Origin: a virus
Taxonomy: Duplodnaviria; Heunggongvirae; Uroviricota; Caudoviricetes
Reading direction: 5' to 3' (one strand)
DNA length: 41,632 bases
Virus record (IMG/VR): IMGVR_UViG_2579778554_000004
The position numbers were made by a program, and so were the translations under genes. The notes below the pieces were generated by a model that saw only the letters and a program-made list of their open reading frames with translations, did no database searches and was not told where the DNA came from. How positions within the stretch are numbered: position 1 is the stretch's first letter; each line of letters opens with the position of its first letter. Below, in pieces: positions 3,151 to 36,473 of the stretch.

Positions 3151-5613
3151 TCAATTCCCTGTTAATTGCAAAACTTGCTCTTCCAGCTTTTTAACCCTGC
3201 GTCTCATCATCGCAGATTCCAGAATCAGAGCCTCTTCATAACGGATACCGTAACATTCACCAGCCTCGACGGCTTCGCGTACCAGAACCTTTGTCTGTAT
3301 AAGTGGGTAAACTCCTGCAGAATGCTCTTCTTCCGTCACATCCCTGTATTCTGCCGGGGTCTCATTCCACTTGTCATAACAGATAAATGCCAGTCGTGAC
3401 ACATCTATGCCTTCATTCTGAAATACACTGATAACATGCTGCGCAACTGCACCAAAGTGCCATCTTGCTCCGTCTTTACCTTTCACTTCGATCCTGTCAA
3501 GGTACTGGTATGAAACCCATTCCACTCTTTCCCATGCGTCCAGTATTTTCTCATCAATAACCTCTGGAGCAGTCTTGAAACGCGCATCGGACAGCACCGT
3601 AAACGCTGACTGGGTAAATCCCCCCGACCATGCACGACCAGCCAACCCAAGAGAATAAGTATTCGTTGTCGATGGTGTCATGGCTGAATCAGAAAACTGT
3701 ATATATTCTGAATTTCCAGTAGATATTCGAATATTTCCATTTATTAGCGACATAGTGCCTTTAGTATTATCACTATTGAATAATTTCAATTGCGAACTTA
3801 TACCGCCTCCCACAGCCAGAGATACATCGCCTTCAGCAAGCATTCTGAATTTATCTGCAGAAACAAGCGTCTGGTTAGCAAGGTTAAAATATTTAACCCA
3901 CCATTCAAAACGCCCTGACATAGTCCCAACGTACTGACCAAGCGCAGGGACGTGAACAACATTGCTATTTGTAGTGCCGTCTATACTGGAAATACCAGTC
4001 ACCGCTGATGCAGAACTCAGAATATTATTTCTGTCACCCGGATGTTTAATTTCAACAAAGTTCCTGATACACCCTTCCTCGAAGGTAACCACGCCGGAAG
4101 AACTATACATGGGGAATATTGACGCATAATTACTGCGTGCAGCATCTAAGAAACGAATGGTTGTAGATGTCTGCAGATCTCCTGATTCATTTTTCCCATC
4201 ACACCCAGTCATTAGAATATTACTGGCAATATTATTATTTCCCTGAACGGTGACTCCGTGCGCCTGCTTTGCGTCCGATTCAGAGTAATCAACCAGCACA
4301 TTCGAAATCAGGTTACCAGTCCCCTTGCCAACAACTACTGCGGCGTATTTTGGGTTGTTAGCCATTACACTGCTAATGATATTATTCGTTGGGGCAGTTT
4401 CCGTCTCAGTTCCATTGTAAACAACGTGCTGACACTCTTCACCAATAACATTGCTGACAATGTTATATTTTGCTGCTGTTTTAAGTTCCACTGCACCAAA
4501 CTGAGGATAATTTCTGGCTATCACACCATCAATTAGCGTATTTTGCGATGAATCAAAAAGCACACAACCTGCTTTTTTATTATTTGCGAACCCTAAATAC
4601 TCTCCTCTTATATCTCTAACAATGTAACCTGACGGAATACCATTATTCGGATAAGCGATCAAGCTAAATCCTGTTCCTCGCGTATTTGTAAATCTGATAT
4701 TTTTAACCGATACATCATGGCCACCTGAAAATGACACCTGGTGTCCCTGCACACTATCATCTGATTTATTTCCCATAATTGTTAGCGTACTAAGCATGCC
4801 ACCATCGGGCATGTTAAAAACCAGATGATTACCATCTCTGTCATACTGTTTTATCGTTCCCCCACCTGTTCCGTACAAGCCACAACGTGAAAGAGAAACT
4901 AAAGATGTATTGAATACCCCTTCCGGAACAAAAACACTGCTAAACGAATGTAATGATTTTGTAAAAGCCTCCTTGTTATCATTTAAGATTCCATTTTGAG
5001 CTCCAAAATCCTTAATGCTGACACCATCACGCATCTTATCCTGGAGTGTTCTGTATACCGCTCCAGAACCATACTGAATAAACCAACCAAAACCACCAAC
5101 AACCCCGGCGATTGCAGCATCGACATAATTACGCATTGAGCGATTATTTACAGCGTCCTGCTCAAGTGATGGATCGGCAAGGTTAGATATTCTGTTTTGC
5201 TTTGCATCGTAATATTTTGCAAGCAAAGATGGTTTCATCAATGCACGTCTGAACCACCCAAAACATCGCTGGATCAGCATCGTCAGGTAGTCAAATGCAT
5301 CCTCATGAACTTCGGGGAAAAATTTTCCCTGATTGCGAAGATCAGTCTCCTGCACCACATCAAGCACACGCTCTATCGTGATTCGCCAGCCAGCAGCAAG
5401 CGGCGACGGAAGAACCACTGCACCGCCACTATAAGTTCCCGCCCCTGTTACCGTATAACCAGCATCCAGCACTAGTTTTGTAACGTTACCGTTAAGGTCA
5501 GACACCTGAACAACCAGGTCGGATTTTTTGAAAATACGGAAGGTATACGGAAATGATGTCGTAACGCCGTTACCTGTGTATTCGTTGTGGTCAACTTCGG
5601 TTGAGACCGTCAT
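3151..5613 (-). CDS. Tailspike protein with C-terminal intramolecular chaperone (peptidase S74-like) domain
   Basis: 820 aa; conserved podovirus head-binding N-terminus; Gly/Asn/Ser-rich beta-helix-like centre; C-terminal SDARFK...WHFGAVAQHV chaperone motif. Confidence 0.9.
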   Translation of the reverse strand: MTVSTEVDHNEYTGNGVTTSFPYTFRIFKKSDLVVQVSDLNGNVTKLVLDAGYTVTGAGTYSGGAVVLPSPLAAGWRITIERVLDVVQETDLRNQGKFFPEVHEDAFDYLTMLIQRCFGWFRRALMKPSLLAKYYDAKQNRISNLADPSLEQDAVNNRSMRNYVDAAIAGVVGGFGWFIQYGSGAVYRTLQDKMRDGVSIKDFGAQNGILNDNKEAFTKSLHSFSSVFVPEGVFNTSLVSLSRCGLYGTGGGTIKQYDRDGNHLVFNMPDGGMLSTLTIMGNKSDDSVQGHQVSFSGGHDVSVKNIRFTNTRGTGFSLIAYPNNGIPSGYIVRDIRGEYLGFANNKKAGCVLFDSSQNTLIDGVIARNYPQFGAVELKTAAKYNIVSNVIGEECQHVVYNGTETETAPTNNIISSVMANNPKYAAVVVGKGTGNLISNVLVDYSESDAKQAHGVTVQGNNNIASNILMTGCDGKNESGDLQTSTTIRFLDAARSNYASIFPMYSSSGVVTFEEGCIRNFVEIKHPGDRNNILSSASAVTGISSIDGTTNSNVVHVPALGQYVGTMSGRFEWWVKYFNLANQTLVSADKFRMLAEGDVSLAVGGGISSQLKLFNSDNTKGTMSLINGNIRISTGNSEYIQFSDSAMTPSTTNTYSLGLAGRAWSGGFTQSAFTVLSDARFKTAPEVIDEKILDAWERVEWVSYQYLDRIEVKGKDGARWHFGAVAQHVISVFQNEGIDVSRLAFICYDKWNETPAEYRDVTEEEHSAGVYPLIQTKVLVREAVEAGECYGIRYEEALILESAMMRRRVKKLEEQVLQLTGN

Positions 5614-5717: not shown

Positions 5718-5732
5718 TTACCTTTCAGGTAA
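5718..5732. promoter_or_regulatory. Operator-like palindrome TTACC-N5-GGTAA (site 1 of 13)
   Basis: attacctttcaggtaat; intergenic, upstream of LexA box and the 5810 gene. Confidence 0.5.
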
Positions 5733-5769: not shown

Positions 5770-5789
5770 TACTGTATAAATATACAGTT
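5770..5789. promoter_or_regulatory. LexA (SOS) box
   Basis: TACTGTATAAATATACAGTT: CTGT-N8-ACAG matching the E. coli consensus at 18 of 20 positions; 6-20 nt upstream of the next start codon. Confidence 0.65.
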
Positions 5790-5809
5790 ATTGCATGGAG
5801 AAGATTAAG

Positions 5810-6067
5810 ATGCAGCAGTATCACTATCCACTGGAAGAGGGATTTACCGAAAGGATTCACACGCCGGGAGGCGTCAGGTCACTGGTGGAGGGATCGCACT
5901 TGATGAAATTACTCCGGGATCTCGATAAGGATGGATTTAATGTCGATGGTCCACTTGCCGAACTGACTGCACTGATTAACTACGTCACCAGCTCACAGAT
6001 GTCTATGCGGGATCTGCAAACACATCTCGACTATTGTGCCGAACAATTACGAAAACAAACCAGATAA
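5810..6067 (+). CDS. Small SOS-box-associated protein consisting only of the domain found at the C-termini of the two antirepressor-like proteins; candidate antirepressor
   Basis: GGAG RBS 9 nt upstream of ATG 5810 (alternative ATG 5795); alignable to the C-terminal ~75 aa of the 6385 and 8152 gene products. Confidence 0.6.
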   Translation: MQQYHYPLEEGFTERIHTPGGVRSLVEGSHLMKLLRDLDKDGFNVDGPLAELTALINYVTSSQMSMRDLQTHLDYCAEQLRKQTR

Positions 6068-6070
6068 GGT

Positions 6071-6099
6071 TTGTAATTACCAAGTGGAGTGCTTATATT
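6071..6099 (+). promoter_or_regulatory. Sigma70-like promoter (TTGTAA-17-TATATT) abutting an operator
   Basis: -35 6071-6076, -10 6094-6099, operator palindrome 6099-6113 immediately downstream. Confidence 0.45.
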
Positions 6100-6384
6100 T
6101 ACCTTTGCGGTAAATTTACACCGCACTCCTCTTGTGCCATAGTAATCGGGCACTGGCAAAATCCAGTGCCGGGATTGGTCTCCCGGATTACTAAGTGGCG
6201 CATACCACGCCAGACGTGGTTTTTTTATGCGTATAGCACAGTCATGCCAGAATTATGGTGGGCTGAATGGGGGTCCGAAAGGACGCCGGTACCACTTAGG
6301 CCGGTAAGACCAACTCCGTTCAGTTCACCACCATCTGATTGGTCTCAGCGGTGGTGATGTAATTCGCTAAGTGGAGACGCCATC
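6099..6384 (+). repeat. Left copy of duplicated ~285-nt structured leader (operator, hairpins, intrinsic terminator, pre-RBS hairpin) upstream of the antA-like gene
   Basis: Reverse-complement match to 8848-9131 with compensatory substitutions in stems; begins with TTACCTTTGCGGTAA. Confidence 0.75.
6204..6226 (+). terminator. Intrinsic terminator or attenuator inside the leader
   Basis: ACCACG-ccaga-CGTGGT followed by TTTTTT; alternative pairing GGCG/CGCC upstream could compete. Confidence 0.55.
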
Positions 6385-7041
6385 ATGAACGCTCAACTCA
6401 TCCCCGTATTCAACGGCACTATCGCCAACGAAACCACTCTTCTCGTTAATGCTCGCGATTTACATACTTTTCTTGGGGTAGGTAAACGCTTTGCATCGTG
6501 GATTACAGAACGCATTGCTGAATATGGTTTCGTTGAAAATCAGGACTATATTTTGGTTTCCCCAAATCGGGAAATCAAAGGTCGAGGAGGCGATCGCCGT
6601 AGCAAAGACTATCACCTCACCCTCGATACGGCCAAAGAAACTGCGATGGTCGAGCGCAACGAAAAAGGCCGCCAGATACGCCGATACTTCATTGAATGCG
6701 AGAAACGTTTAAGACAACAAGAAACAAAGGTGGAGAAGGTCTTGTCAGGCTTCATGCCCGCCATTATGGAGGCGATCAAGCTGGAAGACAAAAAAGAATA
6801 CAGTGCCCCACTGAAGCCCGGCTACCGCAGTCTGATTCACTCGCCGTCGGGTGTTCTCGGCCTGACGGAGAACTCACTGCTGATGAATCTGCTGAACCAG
6901 TTACAGGAAGACGGGCACGACGTATCGGGCGCGGCGGCGGAGCTGACCACCATGTTCTGCTACATCGTCGGTGTGAGCAAATGCCTGCGTGATATCCAGA
7001 CCCACGCGGAGTACATCAACGACAAGGCAGGGTTCTTCTGA
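6385..7041 (+). CDS. Antirepressor-like protein, AntA/AntB-type N-terminal domain plus shared C-terminal domain
   Basis: ARDLHTFLGVGKRFASWITERIAEYGFVENQDY pattern; C-terminal ~85 aa near-identical to C-terminus of the 8152-8847 product. Confidence 0.8.
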   Translation: MNAQLIPVFNGTIANETTLLVNARDLHTFLGVGKRFASWITERIAEYGFVENQDYILVSPNREIKGRGGDRRSKDYHLTLDTAKETAMVERNEKGRQIRRYFIECEKRLRQQETKVEKVLSGFMPAIMEAIKLEDKKEYSAPLKPGYRSLIHSPSGVLGLTENSLLMNLLNQLQEDGHDVSGAAAELTTMFCYIVGVSKCLRDIQTHAEYINDKAGFF

Positions 7042-7060
7042 CGGCGGCGGCACAGGGACG
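6789..7060. repeat. Inner inverted repeat, left copy (3' end of antA-like gene)
   Basis: Near-identical by eye to reverse complement of 8132-8394. Confidence 0.8.
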
Positions 7061-7076
7061 TGCAAAACGAAACTAT

Positions 7077-7090: not shown

Positions 7091-7114
7091 GGCCGCTTTC
7101 GCGGCCTTGTTTTT
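7091..7114 (+). terminator. Intrinsic terminator after antA-like gene
   Basis: GGCCGC-tttc-GCGGCC followed by TTGTTTTT. Confidence 0.6.
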
Positions 7115-7345
7115 AACGAATGCCACCGCCGCCTGGGCGGGAATCCGCAGAACGCCCACCGCAGCGGGAGCCGTCAGCGGCAGTATCGCTGTCGTGCTGA
7201 CAACGACCGGCAAAGGCCTGAGTTGAAGCTACCAGAGACAACAAAACGAACAGTGCAGCAAATGCTTTTTTCATTGTGAAATTTCCATCTATAAGCCACC
7301 TCAATGTGGCGTCAATGAGTGTAGCACTGACTTTTGTTTCGTCCA

Positions 7346-7368
7346 CAAAAAAGCCCGCGCTGCGGGCT
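7346..7368 (-). terminator. Intrinsic terminator for the 210-aa gene
   Basis: Hairpin GCCCG-cgctg-CGGGC immediately after stop at 7373, followed on minus strand by U-run (A-tract 7346-7351 on plus). Confidence 0.65.
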
Positions 7369-7372
7369 TCTA

Positions 7373-8005
7373 TTAATGCAGTTTATCTTTGCTTATAACC
7401 AGTAGTCTGTGGGTATGCACATCTTTATCACTGCCCCAACAGAAATCAGCCCACTGGCTATAGAAATCATCCCATGATGTCATGAAGCTAAGAGGTCTAT
7501 CTTCTTCAGAGCCATCTGAAACGTATACATTATATCCTGGGGTGTTTATAGCCCAAGAAATCATTCTTTCCCAGAATCTTCTCCCATCGATTGTTTGTTG
7601 CTCATCAGATACAACGATCGCATATTGCTCTAGGAAGAACTGAAAAAAAATCTGAGGCAAACCATGAACAGCACGGTCATGAATAACATTAGGCGTACGC
7701 CATACCATGATCTGCGTACATGTTCTTTTGGCTTCGACGATATCTTCCCGAAAGATTAACTTAACCGCATACACCGTTTCTGGAGTATCGCTGGTAGTAA
7801 TCATTCTGTAATGATCGCCATTACAAGATTTTACAAGGCGATAACCATAAGGTGTTGTGAATCCCGGAAGAACGAAATCAACCACACCTTTCGCTAAGTA
7901 GCTTTCGGTGTGACTAGTGTTCTTCTCAGACATGTTCAGTTTTCTATCGAAATCTGCTTCTGGGATAATGTATGGCATCGCTTTTCTTGTTGTATTTGTT
8001 CTCAT
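7373..8005 (-). CDS. Hypothetical 210-aa cytoplasmic protein, orphan accessory gene (no family recognised)
   Basis: Strong SD GGGAGG before ATG; own operator-bearing upstream region and own terminator; AT-richer than flanks by eye. Confidence 0.75.
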   Translation of the reverse strand: MRTNTTRKAMPYIIPEADFDRKLNMSEKNTSHTESYLAKGVVDFVLPGFTTPYGYRLVKSCNGDHYRMITTSDTPETVYAVKLIFREDIVEAKRTCTQIMVWRTPNVIHDRAVHGLPQIFFQFFLEQYAIVVSDEQQTIDGRRFWERMISWAINTPGYNVYVSDGSEEDRPLSFMTSWDDFYSQWADFCWGSDKDVHTHRLLVISKDKLH

Positions 8006-8064
8006 TTCGTCCTCCCATGTTTGGCTACAGGACGCGTTTTGAAGGGAAGATTAAAAATGCTTTC

Positions 8065-8079
8065 TTACCCTTGAGGTAA
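8065..8079. promoter_or_regulatory. Operator-like palindrome TTACC-N5-GGTAA (site 3)
   Basis: ttacccttgaggtaa, about 60 bp upstream of the 210-aa gene start. Confidence 0.5.
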
Positions 8080-8131
8080 TAGTACGCTATTCACCCCCAG
8101 TCTGCAATCTGTACAGAATTATTTAAAGGCA

Positions 8132-8394
8132 CATCCCTGTGCCGCCGCCCGTCAGAAGAACCCTGCCTTGTCGTTGATGTACTCCGCGTGCGTCTGGATA
8201 TCACGCAGGCATTTGCTCACACCGACGATGTAGCAGAACATGGTGGTCAGTTCCGCCGCCGCGCCCGATACGTCGTGCCCGTCTTCCTGTAACTGGTTCA
8301 GCAGATTCATCAGCAGTGAGTTCTCCGTCAGGCCGAGAACACCCGACGGCGAATGAATCAGGCTGCGGTAGCCGGGCTTCAGCGGGGCACTGTA
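8132..8394. repeat. Inner inverted repeat, right copy (3' end of bro-like gene)
   Basis: Reverse complement matches 6789-7060 with only a few mismatches. Confidence 0.8.
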
Positions 8395-8847
8395 GGTTTT
8401 GTTCTCTATCTTCATCGCCTGCATTACTGCTGACGCCGTGGCGTTGGCTACCTGGTCGGCAACCATCTTTATGCGTTCTTCCTGCGGGAGCGAGTTTTTA
8501 ATGTAACTTCCGGTGCGGCGGATCTGAGGAAGAACCTCACCTGTAACCCATTTACGAAAGCGGTATGGGATAGTGCCTGGTGTCACCGCATCGCGGCAGC
8601 GGAGGATCAGTGTGTAGAGGCCTGACTCGGAGATAATGATCGATTCTTGCTCACCGCCAGGGGTGTCGGTTGAAGCGACGCCCTTCTCATCATCATCAAG
8701 TTTTCGAACAGCATCTCGATGGTTTGCTATGCCTATAGCCCGACAAACATCTGAAGCGATAAACCATGGCTCACCATTAATGACGATTACCCGTATATCG
8801 GCTTGAGATTCGAAAGAAAAAATGGACGTGCTTTTTGTAGCTGTCAT
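8152..8847 (-). CDS. Antirepressor-like protein, Bro-N/P22-Ant-type N-terminal domain plus shared C-terminal domain
   Basis: N-terminus IRVIVINGEPWFIASDVCRAIG typical of Bro-N/Ant; C-terminus identical to antA-like C-terminus. Confidence 0.8.
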   Translation of the reverse strand: MTATKSTSIFSFESQADIRVIVINGEPWFIASDVCRAIGIANHRDAVRKLDDDEKGVASTDTPGGEQESIIISESGLYTLILRCRDAVTPGTIPYRFRKWVTGEVLPQIRRTGSYIKNSLPQEERIKMVADQVANATASAVMQAMKIENKTYSAPLKPGYRSLIHSPSGVLGLTENSLLMNLLNQLQEDGHDVSGAAAELTTMFCYIVGVSKCLRDIQTHAEYINDKAGFF

Positions 8848-9131
8848 AGTGGTTACCTTTTAGTCTGGTTAATCACCACTACCGACGCCAATCGGTTGGT
8901 GGTGAACTGTGCAGGGTTGGCGTAACCGGCTAAAAGGACCCGGCGCACCTTTCGGTGCCCCCACACAGCCCACCATAATACGAATGTGGCCGTGCTATAC
9001 GCATAAAAAAACCGCTTGCGCGGTGAATGCGCCTTTTAGTAATCCGGGACGCCAATCCCGGCACTGGATTTTGCCAGTGCCCGATTACTATGGCACAAGA
9101 GGAGTGCGGTGTAAATTTACCGCAAAGGTAA
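8848..9131 (-). repeat. Right copy of duplicated structured leader, upstream of the bro-like gene
   Basis: Reverse complement of 6099-6384; operator TTACCGCAAAGGTAA at 9117-9131; terminator hairpin ACCGC-ttgc-GCGGT plus A-run 9005-9024. Confidence 0.75.
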
Positions 9132-9278
9132 TGATAGACACAGACAAACATTAAAATCAACCATATTTGGTTAATGTGTGTAAAAGAGCCAGCAGCGAGA
9201 AATTGTGCCGCGACGTAAAATAACGAGCATCTGCTGGCTTACAACCAGCGATGTTTCAAATTTGTCACTACTATCAAC

Positions 9279-9626: not shown

Positions 9627-9923
9627 CTAATTATATTTGTCTTTAAAAATTTCATGGAATGATTGAGAGTAAGACTTGCCATACTTCAAATAACATTCTT
9701 CATCCAACTTTCTTAATGAACTTCGAACCTGTTCGTGGCATACAGCAAAAAAAACAAGTCCGCCGCCTATTAATACCCCTATTGATATTGGGTTCGCAAC
9801 ATCCCATAAAAAATCGGCTAACAGAGCAAATACCCCACCGCCGCCAATAAATGCCCCTATAGCTCGGTTCGTTTTAGCTTGCTCATAGCGTCTCTCTAAC
9901 TCACTAAACTCTTTAATATCCAT
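9627..9923 (-). CDS. Small two-TM membrane protein; candidate superinfection-exclusion or toxin-like factor
   Basis: GAGGTG RBS; two Gly-rich hydrophobic helices (GAFIGGGGVFALL, IGVLIGGGLVFFAV); AT-rich. Confidence 0.55.
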   Translation of the reverse strand: MDIKEFSELERRYEQAKTNRAIGAFIGGGGVFALLADFLWDVANPISIGVLIGGGLVFFAVCHEQVRSSLRKLDEECYLKYGKSYSQSFHEIFKDKYN

Positions 9924-10000: not shown

Positions 10001-10849
10001 TTATTGTGAAGTTTTCATTGCACGATTTTCAGCTCTGAATTCAAGAACCGTTTCAATATTTCTTTCCTTCAGCATATCCATAACATTTTTATTCATTTGA
10101 CTATCACTGGTTAATAACTGATAAACGTTTCTTTTCTCTTTATCAGAATTTTCTTTAACAGCTGATTTGCATGACAAATGCTTATTGAAATTTTCTACAT
10201 CGCTAGTACATGAATTTACGGCTGCGGATGAAATATCAGACGCTGAAGAAACACCGTCATCTAAACGTTTTATAGCATTTTCTATACATGAGTTAAGGGA
10301 ATAAACGACAACTGAGCGATACCCTTCAGACGCACACCATTCTAAATTTCTTGAAGGATCGAGTGGTTTTACTTCGCTGGATTGAATTAACTTGTCAAAC
10401 ACTGACTTATATTCAATCTGTTTTTTATCTATAGCCCATACCTCAGTAGCTGATTTATAATGCCCAGTATGCTTATTAACATCAAACCCATGTTTTATAA
10501 GCAAATCTGCCCATGAAAGATTTATTGATTCATTGTTATGAGGCCATTTCCCTGTCAGAACCGCCCCCATAGACCCCATATATCCGCCATATGATGGTAT
10601 AGCACCATGGCTCAATAACTTCTCAGCAACCACAGGGCAATTAATTACATAGGAGACGTAAAGCCCATTCCATAAAGCCCCTCTATAGTAATCGCCGCGA
10701 TTAGGTTCTTTTAAGTCGATAGCCTTTGATAATTGTTCACACGTTTTGCATGCATCAAAGTTATCCTTATTGCATTGCAATGAACTGGCGGCTGTAGGAT
10801 TTACAGCGACTATTGAAAGCACAATGCCAAACAAATTTATTTTTTTCAT
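10001..10849 (-). CDS. Secreted protein with possible ankyrin-like repeats, AT-rich moron coupled to the late operon
   Basis: Signal peptide MKKINLFGIVLSIVAVNPTAASS; many Cys; start 1 nt after stop of the 1129-aa gene. Confidence 0.65.
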   Translation of the reverse strand: MKKINLFGIVLSIVAVNPTAASSLQCNKDNFDACKTCEQLSKAIDLKEPNRGDYYRGALWNGLYVSYVINCPVVAEKLLSHGAIPSYGGYMGSMGAVLTGKWPHNNESINLSWADLLIKHGFDVNKHTGHYKSATEVWAIDKKQIEYKSVFDKLIQSSEVKPLDPSRNLEWCASEGYRSVVVYSLNSCIENAIKRLDDGVSSASDISSAAVNSCTSDVENFNKHLSCKSAVKENSDKEKRNVYQLLTSDSQMNKNVMDMLKERNIETVLEFRAENRAMKTSQ

Positions 10850-16987: not shown

Positions 16988-17553
16988 CAGTAACCTCCTA
17001 TTTTGAATCGGGAGTCAGAATTCATAAAACCTGAGTTAGATAACATTGGCGTGTTTCCTTGCTTACTAATCGGATTGATACTTCCGCTACCCAACTTATA
17101 TGCACCGTATGCTTTTAGTGGTGCCGTTAACAAAGTGCTGGTCATCGATGATTTAGCAGCCGACTGAGCAGCAGCCCCCTGTGCCTGAGCATTCATTCCC
17201 TGAACCTGATACCCATATGCCTCACGCTGAGCATTATTCACTGTCGTTAACGCATCAAGAGTGCCGAACTGAGCATTATCCGCAAAAACGTCAAGAGCTG
17301 TTCCGCTACTTAATTCCGCACCGGTAGCCCCCATAGTGGCCGCCGCAGTGCCTGAGCGTTGACGCATTTCACGACGACGCTGATCCGCTTCAATATTCCC
17401 ACGATTGATTGAATCCTGTGCCTGAGCTTCAGCAATTTCAGCATTCCGATCAGCTATGGCTGACTGGTATTTTGCCTGCTTGCTCTGGCTGTACATTGAC
17501 GCGGCTGTGGATGCCACTGTGACGGCAACCAAAGCGATGGCTGGGTTACACAT
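16987..17553 (-). CDS. Internal virion protein (T7 gp14-like position), 188 aa
   Basis: Ala/Gln-rich small protein with hydrophobic N-terminus; translationally coupled. Confidence 0.65.
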   Translation of the reverse strand: MCNPAIALVAVTVASTAASMYSQSKQAKYQSAIADRNAEIAEAQAQDSINRGNIEADQRRREMRQRSGTAAATMGATGAELSSGTALDVFADNAQFGTLDALTTVNNAQREAYGYQVQGMNAQAQGAAAQSAAKSSMTSTLLTAPLKAYGAYKLGSGSINPISKQGNTPMLSNSGFMNSDSRFKIGGY

Positions 17554-18017
17554 TATTTTCTCTCCATGTGAAATCTGTGGAAATTAAGACCAAGAGCACC
17601 ATAAGGCGCGGCTTCTTCAAGCCTGAATCCAAGCCAGTGCAGCCATGCTTTGGCAACATGGTTTCGCTCGTCGACATAGTTTTCCAGGCGCGGATAAACT
17701 GCCAGCATCTGCTGCAATACAGGGCGGCAGTGGCGAAGAAATGTCTTCTGATATTTTTCGATGCGGCTGGTTCCGACCAGCCAGGGCGTACCATTGCCAC
17801 CGATCATTGACGCCGGAGATACGCCAAACATGGTTACCAGTTCTCCGTTCGCAAATCCTGACCAGGCCATAGTCGCAGTACGCAGACCAACACGCAGCGC
17901 ATCTTCGGTAGTCATCAGTGATACCGCATACAGTTCGTCAATATCAGCCTGACGAACATCCGGCAAAATCATCTGAAGATGCTCTTCGGTTGCGGGAATA
18001 ATTTGAACATCGATCAT
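17553..18017 (-). CDS. Internal virion protein (T7 gp13-like position), 154 aa
   Basis: Position between tail tube B-like and gp14-like genes; coupled start and stop. Confidence 0.6.
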   Translation of the reverse strand: MIDVQIIPATEEHLQMILPDVRQADIDELYAVSLMTTEDALRVGLRTATMAWSGFANGELVTMFGVSPASMIGGNGTPWLVGTSRIEKYQKTFLRHCRPVLQQMLAVYPRLENYVDERNHVAKAWLHWLGFRLEEAAPYGALGLNFHRFHMERK

Positions 18018-26284: not shown

Positions 26285-26299
26285 TTACCTTTCAGGTAA
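26285..26299. promoter_or_regulatory. Operator-like palindrome TTACC-N5-GGTAA (site 5)
   Basis: ttacctttcaggtaa at the start of the tRNA/moron insertion. Confidence 0.5.
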
Positions 26300-26784: not shown

Positions 26785-26861
26785 CAGCAGGACGCCATTG
26801 CGATGACTTCATGCTGTAAACCAGTACAGCCACGGAAGGCATAACTCATTGCTTCCAGTTC

Positions 26862-26896: not shown

Positions 26897-27319
26897 ATGA
26901 AAACAGCCGACATGCTAGCTAAATATCTAAATGAATGGCCGTGCAAATATGTACGCATTGTTCAGGGTGATGACTCAATTTTTTATGGTGTTTTTGCAGG
27001 AAATGAAATGCTTTGTGAAGCAATTCCAGGTGAGCGACTTGCCGGGTTAACGCTTAGCGATGACCATGGAATAGGAGTTACTTGCCATGACTGGATTTCA
27101 GCGCAGAAAACTGAAATGGAAAAAGGCAATGTGTTTGATATTTCTCGCGCTGTATACGCCAAAGAAAAAAGTGATGATGATTACATGCGCGAAAACTTAT
27201 ACAACATGAAGTTACAATGCCTGGCTGAAGTGCTTAGTAAAAGATCTTTACTTGATGTGGTTGGTGCTGAGCAGGACGCCAAGGCAATCAACGCCGCATT
27301 CGATAAAATAACCTTCTAA
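26897..27319 (+). CDS. Hypothetical 140-aa protein (moron on the opposite strand to the late operon)
   Basis: AAGGTGAG RBS; followed by 14-mer CGTGACATGTCACA and a terminator. Confidence 0.7.
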   Translation: MKTADMLAKYLNEWPCKYVRIVQGDDSIFYGVFAGNEMLCEAIPGERLAGLTLSDDHGIGVTCHDWISAQKTEMEKGNVFDISRAVYAKEKSDDDYMRENLYNMKLQCLAEVLSKRSLLDVVGAEQDAKAINAAFDKITF

Positions 27320-33469: not shown

Positions 33470-33484
33470 TTACCCCTGAGGTAA
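33470..33484. promoter_or_regulatory. Operator-like palindrome TTACC-N5-GGTAA (site 6)
   Basis: ttacccctgaggtaa. Confidence 0.5.
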
Positions 33485-35888: not shown

Positions 35889-36473
35889 ATGAAAAGTATC
35901 CAGGACGTCCGCAGGCAAAATCTCAACGACTTGATCGACCGTGAATTCAATGGTGTTCAGACGCGGATGGCAGAAAAACTTGGAACTCAGGCAAATCTGG
36001 TAAACCGCTGGGCTCTTGGCAAGAAGGTTATCGGCGACCAGGTTGCGCGAAAAATTGAAGCTGCCGCCAATAAACCACGTAACTGGCTTGATATCGATCG
36101 CTCGCTTTCTCAGGAAGGTTTTCAGCCTGTCGGCCCAAGCGACATTGGTCAGCTGGCGGCTCACAACCTGGAACGCTGGATGAGCGAAAGCCGCGACCTT
36201 TCAACTCAGGGAAAACTTCACCGCGCATCCGGCGTCGCCCAGGTGACAATCAGCCGCCTGTTAAACAATGAGGTCAGTGTTTCCATTTCCACCCTGGAGA
36301 ATGTTGCATCAGCATTCGGGCGTCACGGCTATGAATTACTGATTCACCCGCACGACCCTGCGACCATCAACTATGACCGCTCGCGCTACGCATTGTTACC
36401 CGAAACCGAGAAAGCAAAGATCGAAAGTTACATTGAATTTGTCATCAACCAGAACGAAAAAAACAAACAATAA
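35889..36473 (+). CDS. Prophage repressor (CI-like), tandem HTH domains, no autocleavage domain
   Basis: Two XRE-type HTH regions; no Ser-Lys peptidase motif seen; divergent from Cro-like gene. Confidence 0.75.
   Translation: MKSIQDVRRQNLNDLIDREFNGVQTRMAEKLGTQANLVNRWALGKKVIGDQVARKIEAAANKPRNWLDIDRSLSQEGFQPVGPSDIGQLAAHNLERWMSESRDLSTQGKLHRASGVAQVTISRLLNNEVSVSISTLENVASAFGRHGYELLIHPHDPATINYDRSRYALLPETEKAKIESYIEFVINQNEKNKQ

Follow-up and report, generated by a model that had tools for sequence, protein, structure and literature searches.

The 210-codon gene on the minus strand at positions 7373–8005 of an Uetakevirus prophage is best read, with a probability that we put at roughly 40% for the reading as a whole, as a cassette controlled by the prophage repressor Rep and encoding a divergent modifying enzyme of the GNAT fold that would serve lytic growth. 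The window, by which the whole analysed stretch of 41,632 nucleotides is meant, is a complete prophage of the phiV10/epsilon15 type, adjoining yfgH and yfgI. The sequence of the gene was already known, as a hypothetical protein in the databases and as a member of a PHROG with no function; what is new is the assignment of a fold, the size and spread of the family, and a predicted leader that recurs among homologues and masks the Shine-Dalgarno sequence (SD). Also new is the recognition that the operator attributed to the gene as its own by an earlier, sequence-only reading is, by its sequence, a predicted operator of Rep, which would place the gene in a LexA-Ant-Rep cascade.

The gene and its product

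The open reading frame runs from an ATG at 8005 to a TAA at 7373–7375, and the SD, GGGAGG (8011–8016, minus strand), can be read from the sequence 5 nt ahead of the ATG, in agreement with the sequence-only reading, which had also described the gene as AT-richer; its GC content is indeed 0.408, compared with 0.484 for the window and 0.51–0.57 for the flanking antirepressor genes and a small ORF downstream. The same reading had placed the gene alone on the minus strand, which is incorrect, given that an antirepressor-family gene of the Bro-N type (8152–8847), the small ORF (7113–7277) and the virion genes share that strand.

Comparison with diverged homologues shows purifying selection (dN/dS of approximately 0.07–0.10), and the length of exactly 210 codons is kept, without indels, in nine diverged homologue lineages. 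The protein is of 24.6 kDa, with a pI of 6.0, and soluble; no transmembrane segment was found in it (the highest 19-residue Kyte-Doolittle hydropathy is 1.05) and its structural model is globular.

A cassette in the antirepressor region

The gene is located between two large antirepressor genes, one of the AntA family (6385–7041, plus strand), which is convergent with it and has a Rep operator at 6099–6113, and the Bro-N gene mentioned above, which lies upstream on the same strand and has its own Rep operator at 9117–9131. The C-terminal domain common to these two genes constitutes an inverted repeat, whose left arm (6786–7063) and right arm (8129–8407) are 96% identical and bracket the gene, and inversion isomers of this repeat were found. 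An identical copy of the gene (WP_001260052), labelled as a hypothetical protein, is carried by a prophage of the phiV10/epsilon15 type in E. coli APEC O1.

Between the start of the gene and the Bro-N gene there are 146 nt of non-coding sequence, with no ORF inside. A hairpin 3′ of the Bro-N gene (8128–8143) folds no better than shuffled sequence, and for that reason read-through from the antirepressor gene into the cassette is possible. On the other side, the small ORF (minus strand), which encodes a signal peptide-bearing product of 53 residues counted from MKKAF, lies downstream of the cassette's terminator and is not considered to be linked to the gene, because it persists in phage TL-2011b next to a different cargo.

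The dedicated intrinsic terminator that had been proposed directly after the stop codon is genuine. It is formed by AAGCCCGC-AGC-GCGGGCUU followed by UUUUGU (7345–7369, minus strand), and consists of an 8-bp GC stem (7351–7358/7362–7369), a 3-nt loop and a T-run, with a folding energy of −16.7 kcal/mol and a z-score of −3.3 according to shuffle statistics; a consensus scan overlooked it because an extension of the stem by A-U and G-U pairs consumed the T-run. This type of ending is frequent in the family, as 47 of 100 distinct homologue loci have a terminator-like hairpin 3′ of the gene, compared with 10.6% of control genes.

The placement of the gene in a variable accessory island, also proposed from the sequence, is borne out by close relatives of the prophage: in TL-2011b the identical slot is filled by a gene for a YafO-family toxin with a small ORF upstream, and in phiV10 the corresponding slot is nearly empty, while copies of the gene occur in lambdoid, siphovirus and P1-like phages. 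The cassette displays the features of a moron (a terminator, atypical GC content and cargo that varies among close relatives, to which a promoter may be added by inference), and it is very probably a mobile single-gene unit.

The operator and the repressor circuit

The palindrome that had been noted about 60 bp upstream of the gene is TTACC-N5-GGTAA (TTACCcttgaGGTAA, 8065–8079), an operator of the epsilon15/phiV10 repressor type. It is only 5 + 5 bp long, and a single site of this kind, taken alone, is at chance level. Evidence for its identity comes from the window as a whole, which contains 11 exact TTACC-N5-GGTAA sites in 41.6 kb (at 5718, 6099, 8065, 9117, 26285, 29449, 33470, 33532, 35819, 36531 and 36593), when only 0.025 are expected from shuffled sequences. 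These sites are found upstream of both large antirepressor genes and of the gene under study, before the packaging genes, between the tailspike gene and a small antirepressor gene (ant), in a cluster around the repressor gene, and at other operon starts. The sites near rep come in pairs; the gene under study carries a single one.

The same operator is present eight times in phiV10 and 11 times in epsilon15, and the GenBank record of epsilon15 labels seven ATTACC-N5-GGTAAT sites, at equivalent positions in the genome, as "protein_bind: repressor, lysogeny". In two relatives (L096 and L099) the operator arms are kept and the spacer changes from TCAAG to TTACG, and in a 70%-identical copy from Symbiopectobacterium the arms are kept at an equal distance from the start, with TGATA as the spacer. 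Judged by its sequence, the palindrome at 8065–8079 is a predicted operator of the prophage's own repressor.

That repressor, Rep (35889–36473, plus strand), has two HTH domains, is 100% identical to p40 of phiV10 and ORF21 of ZX5, and is homologous to the repressor of phage SPC32H (PDB 5D50_A, E 4e-42). The window also encodes a small antirepressor, Ant, of the SPC32H type (5795–6067, plus strand; PDB 5D50_E, E 6e-47), whose gene is immediately preceded by a perfect LexA box, CTGTATAAATATACAG (5772–5787). According to the summary given in PMC9638917, the Rep of SPC32H binds palindromic sites as a tetramer, which is broken by Ant; the ZX5 repressor and a Bro-N antirepressor have been assayed through overexpression (PMC9782041).

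A candidate sigma-70 promoter region for the gene (8050–8107, minus strand) was read from the sequence in two alternative ways, TTGCAG (8107–8102)-17-TACTAT (8084–8079) and TTACCT (8079–8074)-18-TTTAAT (8055–8050), both of which are weak matches overlapped by the operator; a promoter scan with a threshold of 9/12 called none for the gene. Because the Rep operator overlaps this candidate core promoter, the prediction is that a lysogen would not express the gene. An operator at a candidate promoter, the cognate Rep and a LexA-boxed Ant are found together in one genome, and the gene is quite likely to be part of the Rep regulon and to be off in the lysogen. The analysis shows in this way that a prophage cargo gene, too, is wired into the predicted repressor regulon. 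Direct control of the gene by LexA was considered and rejected, as the sole near-match to a LexA box (7407–7422) falls within the coding sequence.

A predicted leader stem

A second layer of control is suggested by the leader, in which an anti-SD sequence, CGUCCU (8034–8029), can pair with AGGACG (8013–8008), which overlaps the SD, to form a stem (8008–8034, minus strand). Homologue leaders have the same arrangement made of other sequences (UUGUCC/GGACAA and ACUCCGG/UGGAGG). The best duplex between the anti-SD region (−40 to −18) and the SD region (−16 to −1) has a median of −8.2 kcal/mol in 47 distinct leaders, which are related to one another and are phylogenetically non-independent, compared with −5.3 kcal/mol in 368 controls, which are further genes with an SD at the same loci (p 2.6e-11). 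With a cruder metric, the ensemble pairing probability, the difference is small (0.67 vs 0.58), and the fold of the window's own leader is not significant against shuffled sequences (z −0.9).

The conserved anti-SD stem, as predicted from these leaders, probably occludes the SD and throttles translation of the gene further. The sequence-only reading had regarded the gene as strongly initiated, which is right as to the presence of the GGGAGG motif and must be qualified as to its strength, since this motif can pair with an upstream anti-SD that recurs in homologues.

A large and dispersed family

The gene had been described as an orphan of no recognisable family; this does not stand, given that all of its residues (1–210) match phrog_1349 of the PHROGs collection with an E value of 3e-113. 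The match is full-length and the family has no assigned function, so the name is not an explanation. Among 5426 complete E. coli genomes, 93 carry the gene at an identity of at least 99% (approximately 2%, including ExPEC and APEC strains), always as "hypothetical". Homologues from Enterobacterales form 63 clusters at the 90% identity level, all named hypothetical or "phage protein", and a search with the family profile against 1.84 billion representatives retrieved 918 clusters (50% identity) at E ≤ 1e-3 and 283 at E ≤ 1e-10.

Scans of the protein against Pfam, NCBIfam and PADLOC matched no model, and the defence models of PADLOC-DB v2 gave 0 families at E ≤ 1. Pfam scans of 64 diverse members (at E ≤ 0.01 and E ≤ 10) returned scattered singletons only and no GNAT family, and sequence and profile searches of the PDB with the family alignments returned nothing meaningful. 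When isolated phages were searched by tblastn with this protein and two distant members, only LLS, BCSR5 and two partial records were retrieved, all of them "hypothetical", and none of the well-studied phages in that set of genomes carries the gene. A literature search on the accession, the PHROG identifier and GNAT anti-defence proteins found no account of the family.

Homologues span four temperate phage architectures, large contigs of lytic-type phages and solitary syntenic chromosomal genes. Uetakevirus prophages carry the gene within the antirepressor region; siphovirus prophages of Serratia and Yersinia, between the tail chaperone and tape-measure genes, where it adjoins P22_AR_N antirepressor and Arc genes; P1-like elements of Citrobacter, on the opposite strand, flanked by the baseplate genes and by sit; and the lambdoid phage LLS, after the spanin genes of the lysis region, at the genome end, as an 84%-identical copy. 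More distant members form part of extended runs of small genes that all lie on one strand (in one such run together with a dCMP deaminase gene and a gene of the T4 Y07C family); others come from IMG/VR contigs of 140–235 kb or from the jumbo phages Atu_ph07 and BCSR5, and two paralogues are present in some of the contigs.

Chromosomes of several bacterial genera have the gene as a lone insert among housekeeping genes, with synteny across species: between genes for an MmyB-type regulator and a nitroreductase in the Enterobacter/Leclercia/Lelliottia group, between thiD and pagP in Proteus, between bamC and purC in Providencia, between a cellobiose-type PTS operon and hda in Photorhabdus, and between ppc and metF in Xenorhabdus. 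Morganella has a syntenic chromosomal copy as well. The fact that such copies are syntenic throughout a genus suggests a benefit for the host, which a purely phage-serving role does not explain.

Predicted fold, conserved residues and fusions

The AlphaFold model of the protein, built with an alignment of 64 sequences, is confident (pLDDT 88.9, pTM 0.82). A Foldseek search with a predicted structure, which the sequence-only reading had proposed, gave a mixed answer: the best 50 matches in the PDB are almost all GNATs, at TM scores of approximately 0.3, and none of the PDB matches reaches E ≤ 1e-3. Among viral models, the best matches are uncharacterised members of the family, followed by proteins annotated as "NAT_SF" or acyl-CoA N-acyltransferase. 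The GNAT toxins KacT, AtaT and TacT appear among the weak structural matches, with scores no better than those of ordinary GNATs.

Profile comparison adds little to this picture. An hhalign run of the family against a GNAT alignment based on RimI gave a probability of 2%, the RimI alignment being shallow because the search that built it retrieved only close relatives (identity of at least 80%); a further search that started from a phage GNAT of locus L140 gave two relatives only. The sole segment aligned by hhalign pairs H114-G115-L-P with the R-G-L-G of RimI motif A and is non-significant; the family consensus there is G-L-A. The motif A loop Q/R-x-x-G-x-G/A is not evident in the family, and there is no Q or R at the canonical offset. 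A segment S-D-x2-Q-T-x2-G-x2-F-W that follows a short strand is, we presume, reminiscent of GNAT motif B. Near-invariant residues of the family are W102 and W145, together with N29, Y79, Q98, D134, F144 and W190. The specific possibility of a protein like Mom of phage Mu was rejected, with an hhalign probability of 0.1% and the Mom structure (8BV8) absent from the top structural matches.

Taken together, the model and its structural neighbours make a GNAT-like fold likely at the level of architecture; that the protein might actually be an acyltransferase is a more doubtful proposition, somewhat less likely than not.

Fusions are rare (three among the 150 relatives listed). The distant member P0137 has an N-terminal SRA_ScoMcrA domain, a modified-DNA-binding domain, and its gene is overlapped upstream by a Phd/YefM antitoxin gene, within a contig that carries three such genes; a second fusion involves the zinc-ribbon domain of the antitoxin MqsA, and a third, approximately 300 unassigned N-terminal residues. 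The fusions suggest an effector domain of conflict systems, possibly acting on or near nucleic acids.

Comparison with known systems

The GNAT superfamily, with members such as NatD/Naa40 (PDB 4UA3), Naa50 and RimI, is the closest system by structure, at TM scores of only about 0.3; in contrast to these proteins, the product showed no sequence or profile similarity to GNATs in the searches made and has no recognisable motif A, and its N-terminal half is non-canonical. Among phage proteins, the comparison with Mom is instructive. Mom is toxic, and its translation is controlled by an mRNA stem that masks the start and is opened by Com; the predicted SD-masking stem in the leader of our gene may be compared with that structure. 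Mom of phage Mu, a divergent enzyme of the GNAT fold, uses Gly-tRNA to glycylate adenine in DNA (PMC13219725, PMC7261163). Both proteins are phage accessory products of approximately 200–240 residues, encoded at the genome periphery, with a divergent fold of GNAT type, which in the present case is a prediction.

Other small GNAT proteins are known from phages. AcrVA5 is a GNAT anti-CRISPR. Rac of phiKMV is an early phage protein of GNAT type that inactivates the host RNA polymerase (PMC7552054). Both are precedents for the participation of small phage GNAT-fold proteins in host takeover or counter-defence, and they are likened to the protein under study by fold and role alone, without detected homology.

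With regard to toxins, TacT, AtaT and KacT are weak structural matches and a few distant members of the family are linked or fused to modules of antitoxin type; nevertheless, type II toxins of this kind have an adjacent, co-transcribed antitoxin, whereas neither the gene under study nor the solitary chromosomal copies have one. With regard to morons, the cassette shares with classical morons and exclusion genes such as lambda bor and lom, P22 sieA and phiV10 oac an autonomous promoter (inferred here), a terminator, a lower GC content, a patchy distribution in related phages and a location where operons meet. Classical morons, however, are expressed in the lysogen and encode mostly membrane proteins, whereas this cassette carries the operator of the prophage repressor and its product is soluble.

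Proposed role and alternatives

The favoured reading can be set out as a sequence of events. The gene would form an accessory unit, equipped with a promoter, a leader and a terminator of its own and inserted in the antirepressor region of an Uetakevirus prophage. In the lysogen, Rep bound at the operator over the promoter would hold the gene off. Upon DNA damage, LexA would be cleaved and the LexA-boxed small Ant (5795–6067) would be made; Ant, by analogy with SPC32H, would disassemble Rep, and the gene would then be transcribed alongside the early and antirepressor genes. The gene would be switched on in the same manner when the phage infects a naive cell, which has no Rep, and in both situations the anti-SD stem would limit translation further. 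The product, a soluble cytoplasmic protein of 24.6 kDa with a divergent GNAT-like (acyl-CoA N-acyltransferase-like) alpha/beta domain, would bind a nucleotide-linked acyl donor and covalently modify a component of the host or of the phage during lytic development.

A phage-serving lytic role is favoured on account of the silence predicted for the gene in lysogens and of the family's presence in virulent-type phages, and also because the protein has no membrane features and matches no defence model. Use in lytic growth is more likely than protection of the lysogen, and within it a role in host takeover or counter-defence is put forward tentatively. Host takeover or anti-defence had been the secondary option of the sequence-only reading, and it fits better than the primary one. 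A bolder version holds that the family is an unrecognised, divergent GNAT branch that phages employ as a covalent-modification weapon, of which the chromosomal copies would be domesticated descendants; we regard it as rather unlikely. According to this version, virulent phages would deploy the weapon early and temperate phages only after inactivation of the repressor, the enzyme would acylate a core or immune component of the host or a nucleic acid (compare Mom on DNA), and the product would do so much harm that control by the operator and a leader that masks the SD would both be required.

The primary option of the sequence-only reading was a moron for superinfection exclusion or abortive infection, that is, a gene expressed from the prophage or the chromosome that protects the lysogen by blocking incoming phages. 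Its architecture and low GC content are those of a moron; on the P22 map sieA adjoins immI, a position analogous to that of the cassette; the variant found in the TL-2011b slot is a toxin module; and the genus-wide retention of solitary chromosomal copies implies a benefit for the host. The predicted silence in the lysogen, however, with the Rep operator over the promoter, argues against an exclusion or defence gene expressed in that state. Furthermore, PADLOC yielded nothing at E ≤ 1, the protein lacks transmembrane segments of the kind that SieA-type proteins have, the chromosomal copies are located among housekeeping genes rather than in defence islands, and homologues occur in lytic-type phage contigs, all of which make this explanation unlikely.

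A toxin-like effector, either a GNAT-fold toxin or a growth inhibitor of the abortive-infection type, restrained by repression and SD occlusion instead of an antitoxin, is likewise improbable. The two layers of control on the gene (operator and anti-SD stem), the presence of a YafO toxin in the same slot of TL-2011b, the weak structural matches to KacT, AtaT and TacT and the MqsA zinc-ribbon fusion can all be cited for it, as can P0137, whose SRA fusion behind a Phd/YefM gene hints at such an effector and counts as evidence against the favoured reading. Nevertheless, no partner ORF exists in the window, where the gene is bounded by non-coding sequence and a terminator, nor at any solitary chromosomal locus; the fusions amount to about three among the 150 relatives listed, and ordinary GNATs match the structure at least as well as the toxins do. 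More improbable still is a non-enzymatic part of the immunity circuit that binds the repressors of other prophages or modulates Ant and Rep. This role is suggested only by position, given that the gene lies between two antirepressor genes with which it has an operator in common, and that the siphovirus homologues of Serratia and Yersinia also adjoin antirepressor and Arc genes; members are nevertheless found after lambdoid lysis genes, in P1-like baseplate regions, in lytic-type contigs and in chromosomes, the protein resembles no Ant, Bro or KilA family, and the conserved polar residues N29, Y79, Q98 and D134 look more like those of a pocket than of an interface. Finally, a chance reading frame or a decaying, functionless gene would agree with the lack of an annotated function anywhere, and is effectively refuted by the purifying selection, the exactly conserved length, the hundreds of diverged homologues and the confident structure prediction.

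Significance

If the favoured reading is true, the gene offers an entry to a large, unannotated phage family that is absent from Pfam, NCBIfam and PADLOC, in a fold whose enzymes have already provided surprising chemistry in the conflict between phages and hosts, as illustrated by Mom, Rac and AcrVA5. The gene is a well-defined and tractable unknown from a large family, and contains nothing to astonish a phage specialist. What was a "hypothetical protein" is now testable, having a predicted regulatory input (LexA, Ant and Rep), a structural model of high confidence and a handful of invariant residues, and the set of Rep operators of a phiV10-type prophage has been mapped by sequence.

Repressor operators and likely SOS input

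The operator motif TTACC-N5-GGTAA is found at 11 exact sites in the whole window (5718, 6099, 8065, 9117, 26285, 29449, 33470, 33532, 35819, 36531 and 36593), where 0.025 would be expected, and with a single mismatch at 5486, 35434 and 35771; an identical motif is annotated as repressor-binding in the epsilon15 record. Operators paired at a spacing of 62 bp flank the repressor gene, and the same spacing is seen at 33470/33532.

A 90-aa ORF (5795-6067), immediately preceded by a perfect LexA box (5772-5787), encodes a homologue of the SPC32H antirepressor (PDB 5D50_E, E 6e-47). Box and ORF together are likely the SOS input of the prophage switch. A second CTGT-N8-ACAG box, also exact (CTGTAAACCAGTACAG), is located at 26814-26829, approximately 70 nt upstream of a plus-strand ORF of 140 aa (26897-27319). 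Both fall in the late region, inside a gap of 1.4 kb, and a repressor operator is found at 26285. This ORF may be a further cargo gene under SOS control.

Inversion of the antirepressor region

Two inverted repeats, one nested within the other, bracket the 210-aa gene (7373-8005, minus strand). The inner repeat (6786-7063 / 8129-8407, 96% identical) corresponds to the C-terminal domain common to the AntA-type and Bro-N-type antirepressor genes, while the outer one (6089-6358 / 8872-9141, 76–87% identical) spans the regions upstream of these two genes. Related prophages carry inverted isomers, with the inner segment flipped in one of them (L087) and the larger segment in another (L088); the antirepressor region therefore inverts by recombination.

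The gene family in other phages and prophages

In the copies of the 210-aa gene from Yersinia, Photorhabdus, Mixta and Serratia (loci L018, L019, L021, L023, L024, L027 and L028), a conserved hairpin followed by a T-run lies approximately 60 nt upstream of the ATG, and next to it, right before the Shine-Dalgarno sequence, comes GTCAgAAGTACTCCGG. This element, which differs from the operator arrangement of the window, looks like a terminator or an attenuator inside the leader. Some phage contigs carry paralogues of the family in pairs, either in tandem or close to each other (L014 851-2148; L015 4186-5480; L146 1908-4471).

A second GNAT-like protein may exist in this type of phage. Going by size and by place in the virion gene order, the ORF at 17553-18017 seems to be the counterpart of epsilon15 gp13, for which the epsilon15 record gives an HHpred match to a GNAT acetyltransferase. 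If the equivalence holds, this protein would be unrelated to the 210-aa one.

Other cargo and variable modules

Two further low-GC cargo genes have the antirepressor region on one side and the virion genes on the other. The first (9627-9923, GC 0.384) encodes a 98-aa phrog_21905 protein and the second (10001-10849, GC 0.365) a 282-aa phrog_6118 protein; read by eye, the former has a long, hydrophobic and glycine-rich central stretch and the latter a signal-peptide-like N-terminus. In phage TL-2011b (L135 3871-4570) the slot of the 210-aa gene is filled by a toxin gene of the YafO family, preceded by a small ORF, and its flanks, the Bro-N gene and a small gene for a “transmembrane anchored protein”, are conserved. 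The tailspike has 820 aa in the window (3151-5613), whereas the APEC O1 prophage encodes an endosialidase-type protein of 1039 aa (L001 4271-7390). The two prophages are otherwise near-identical, and this difference indicates swapping of receptor modules.
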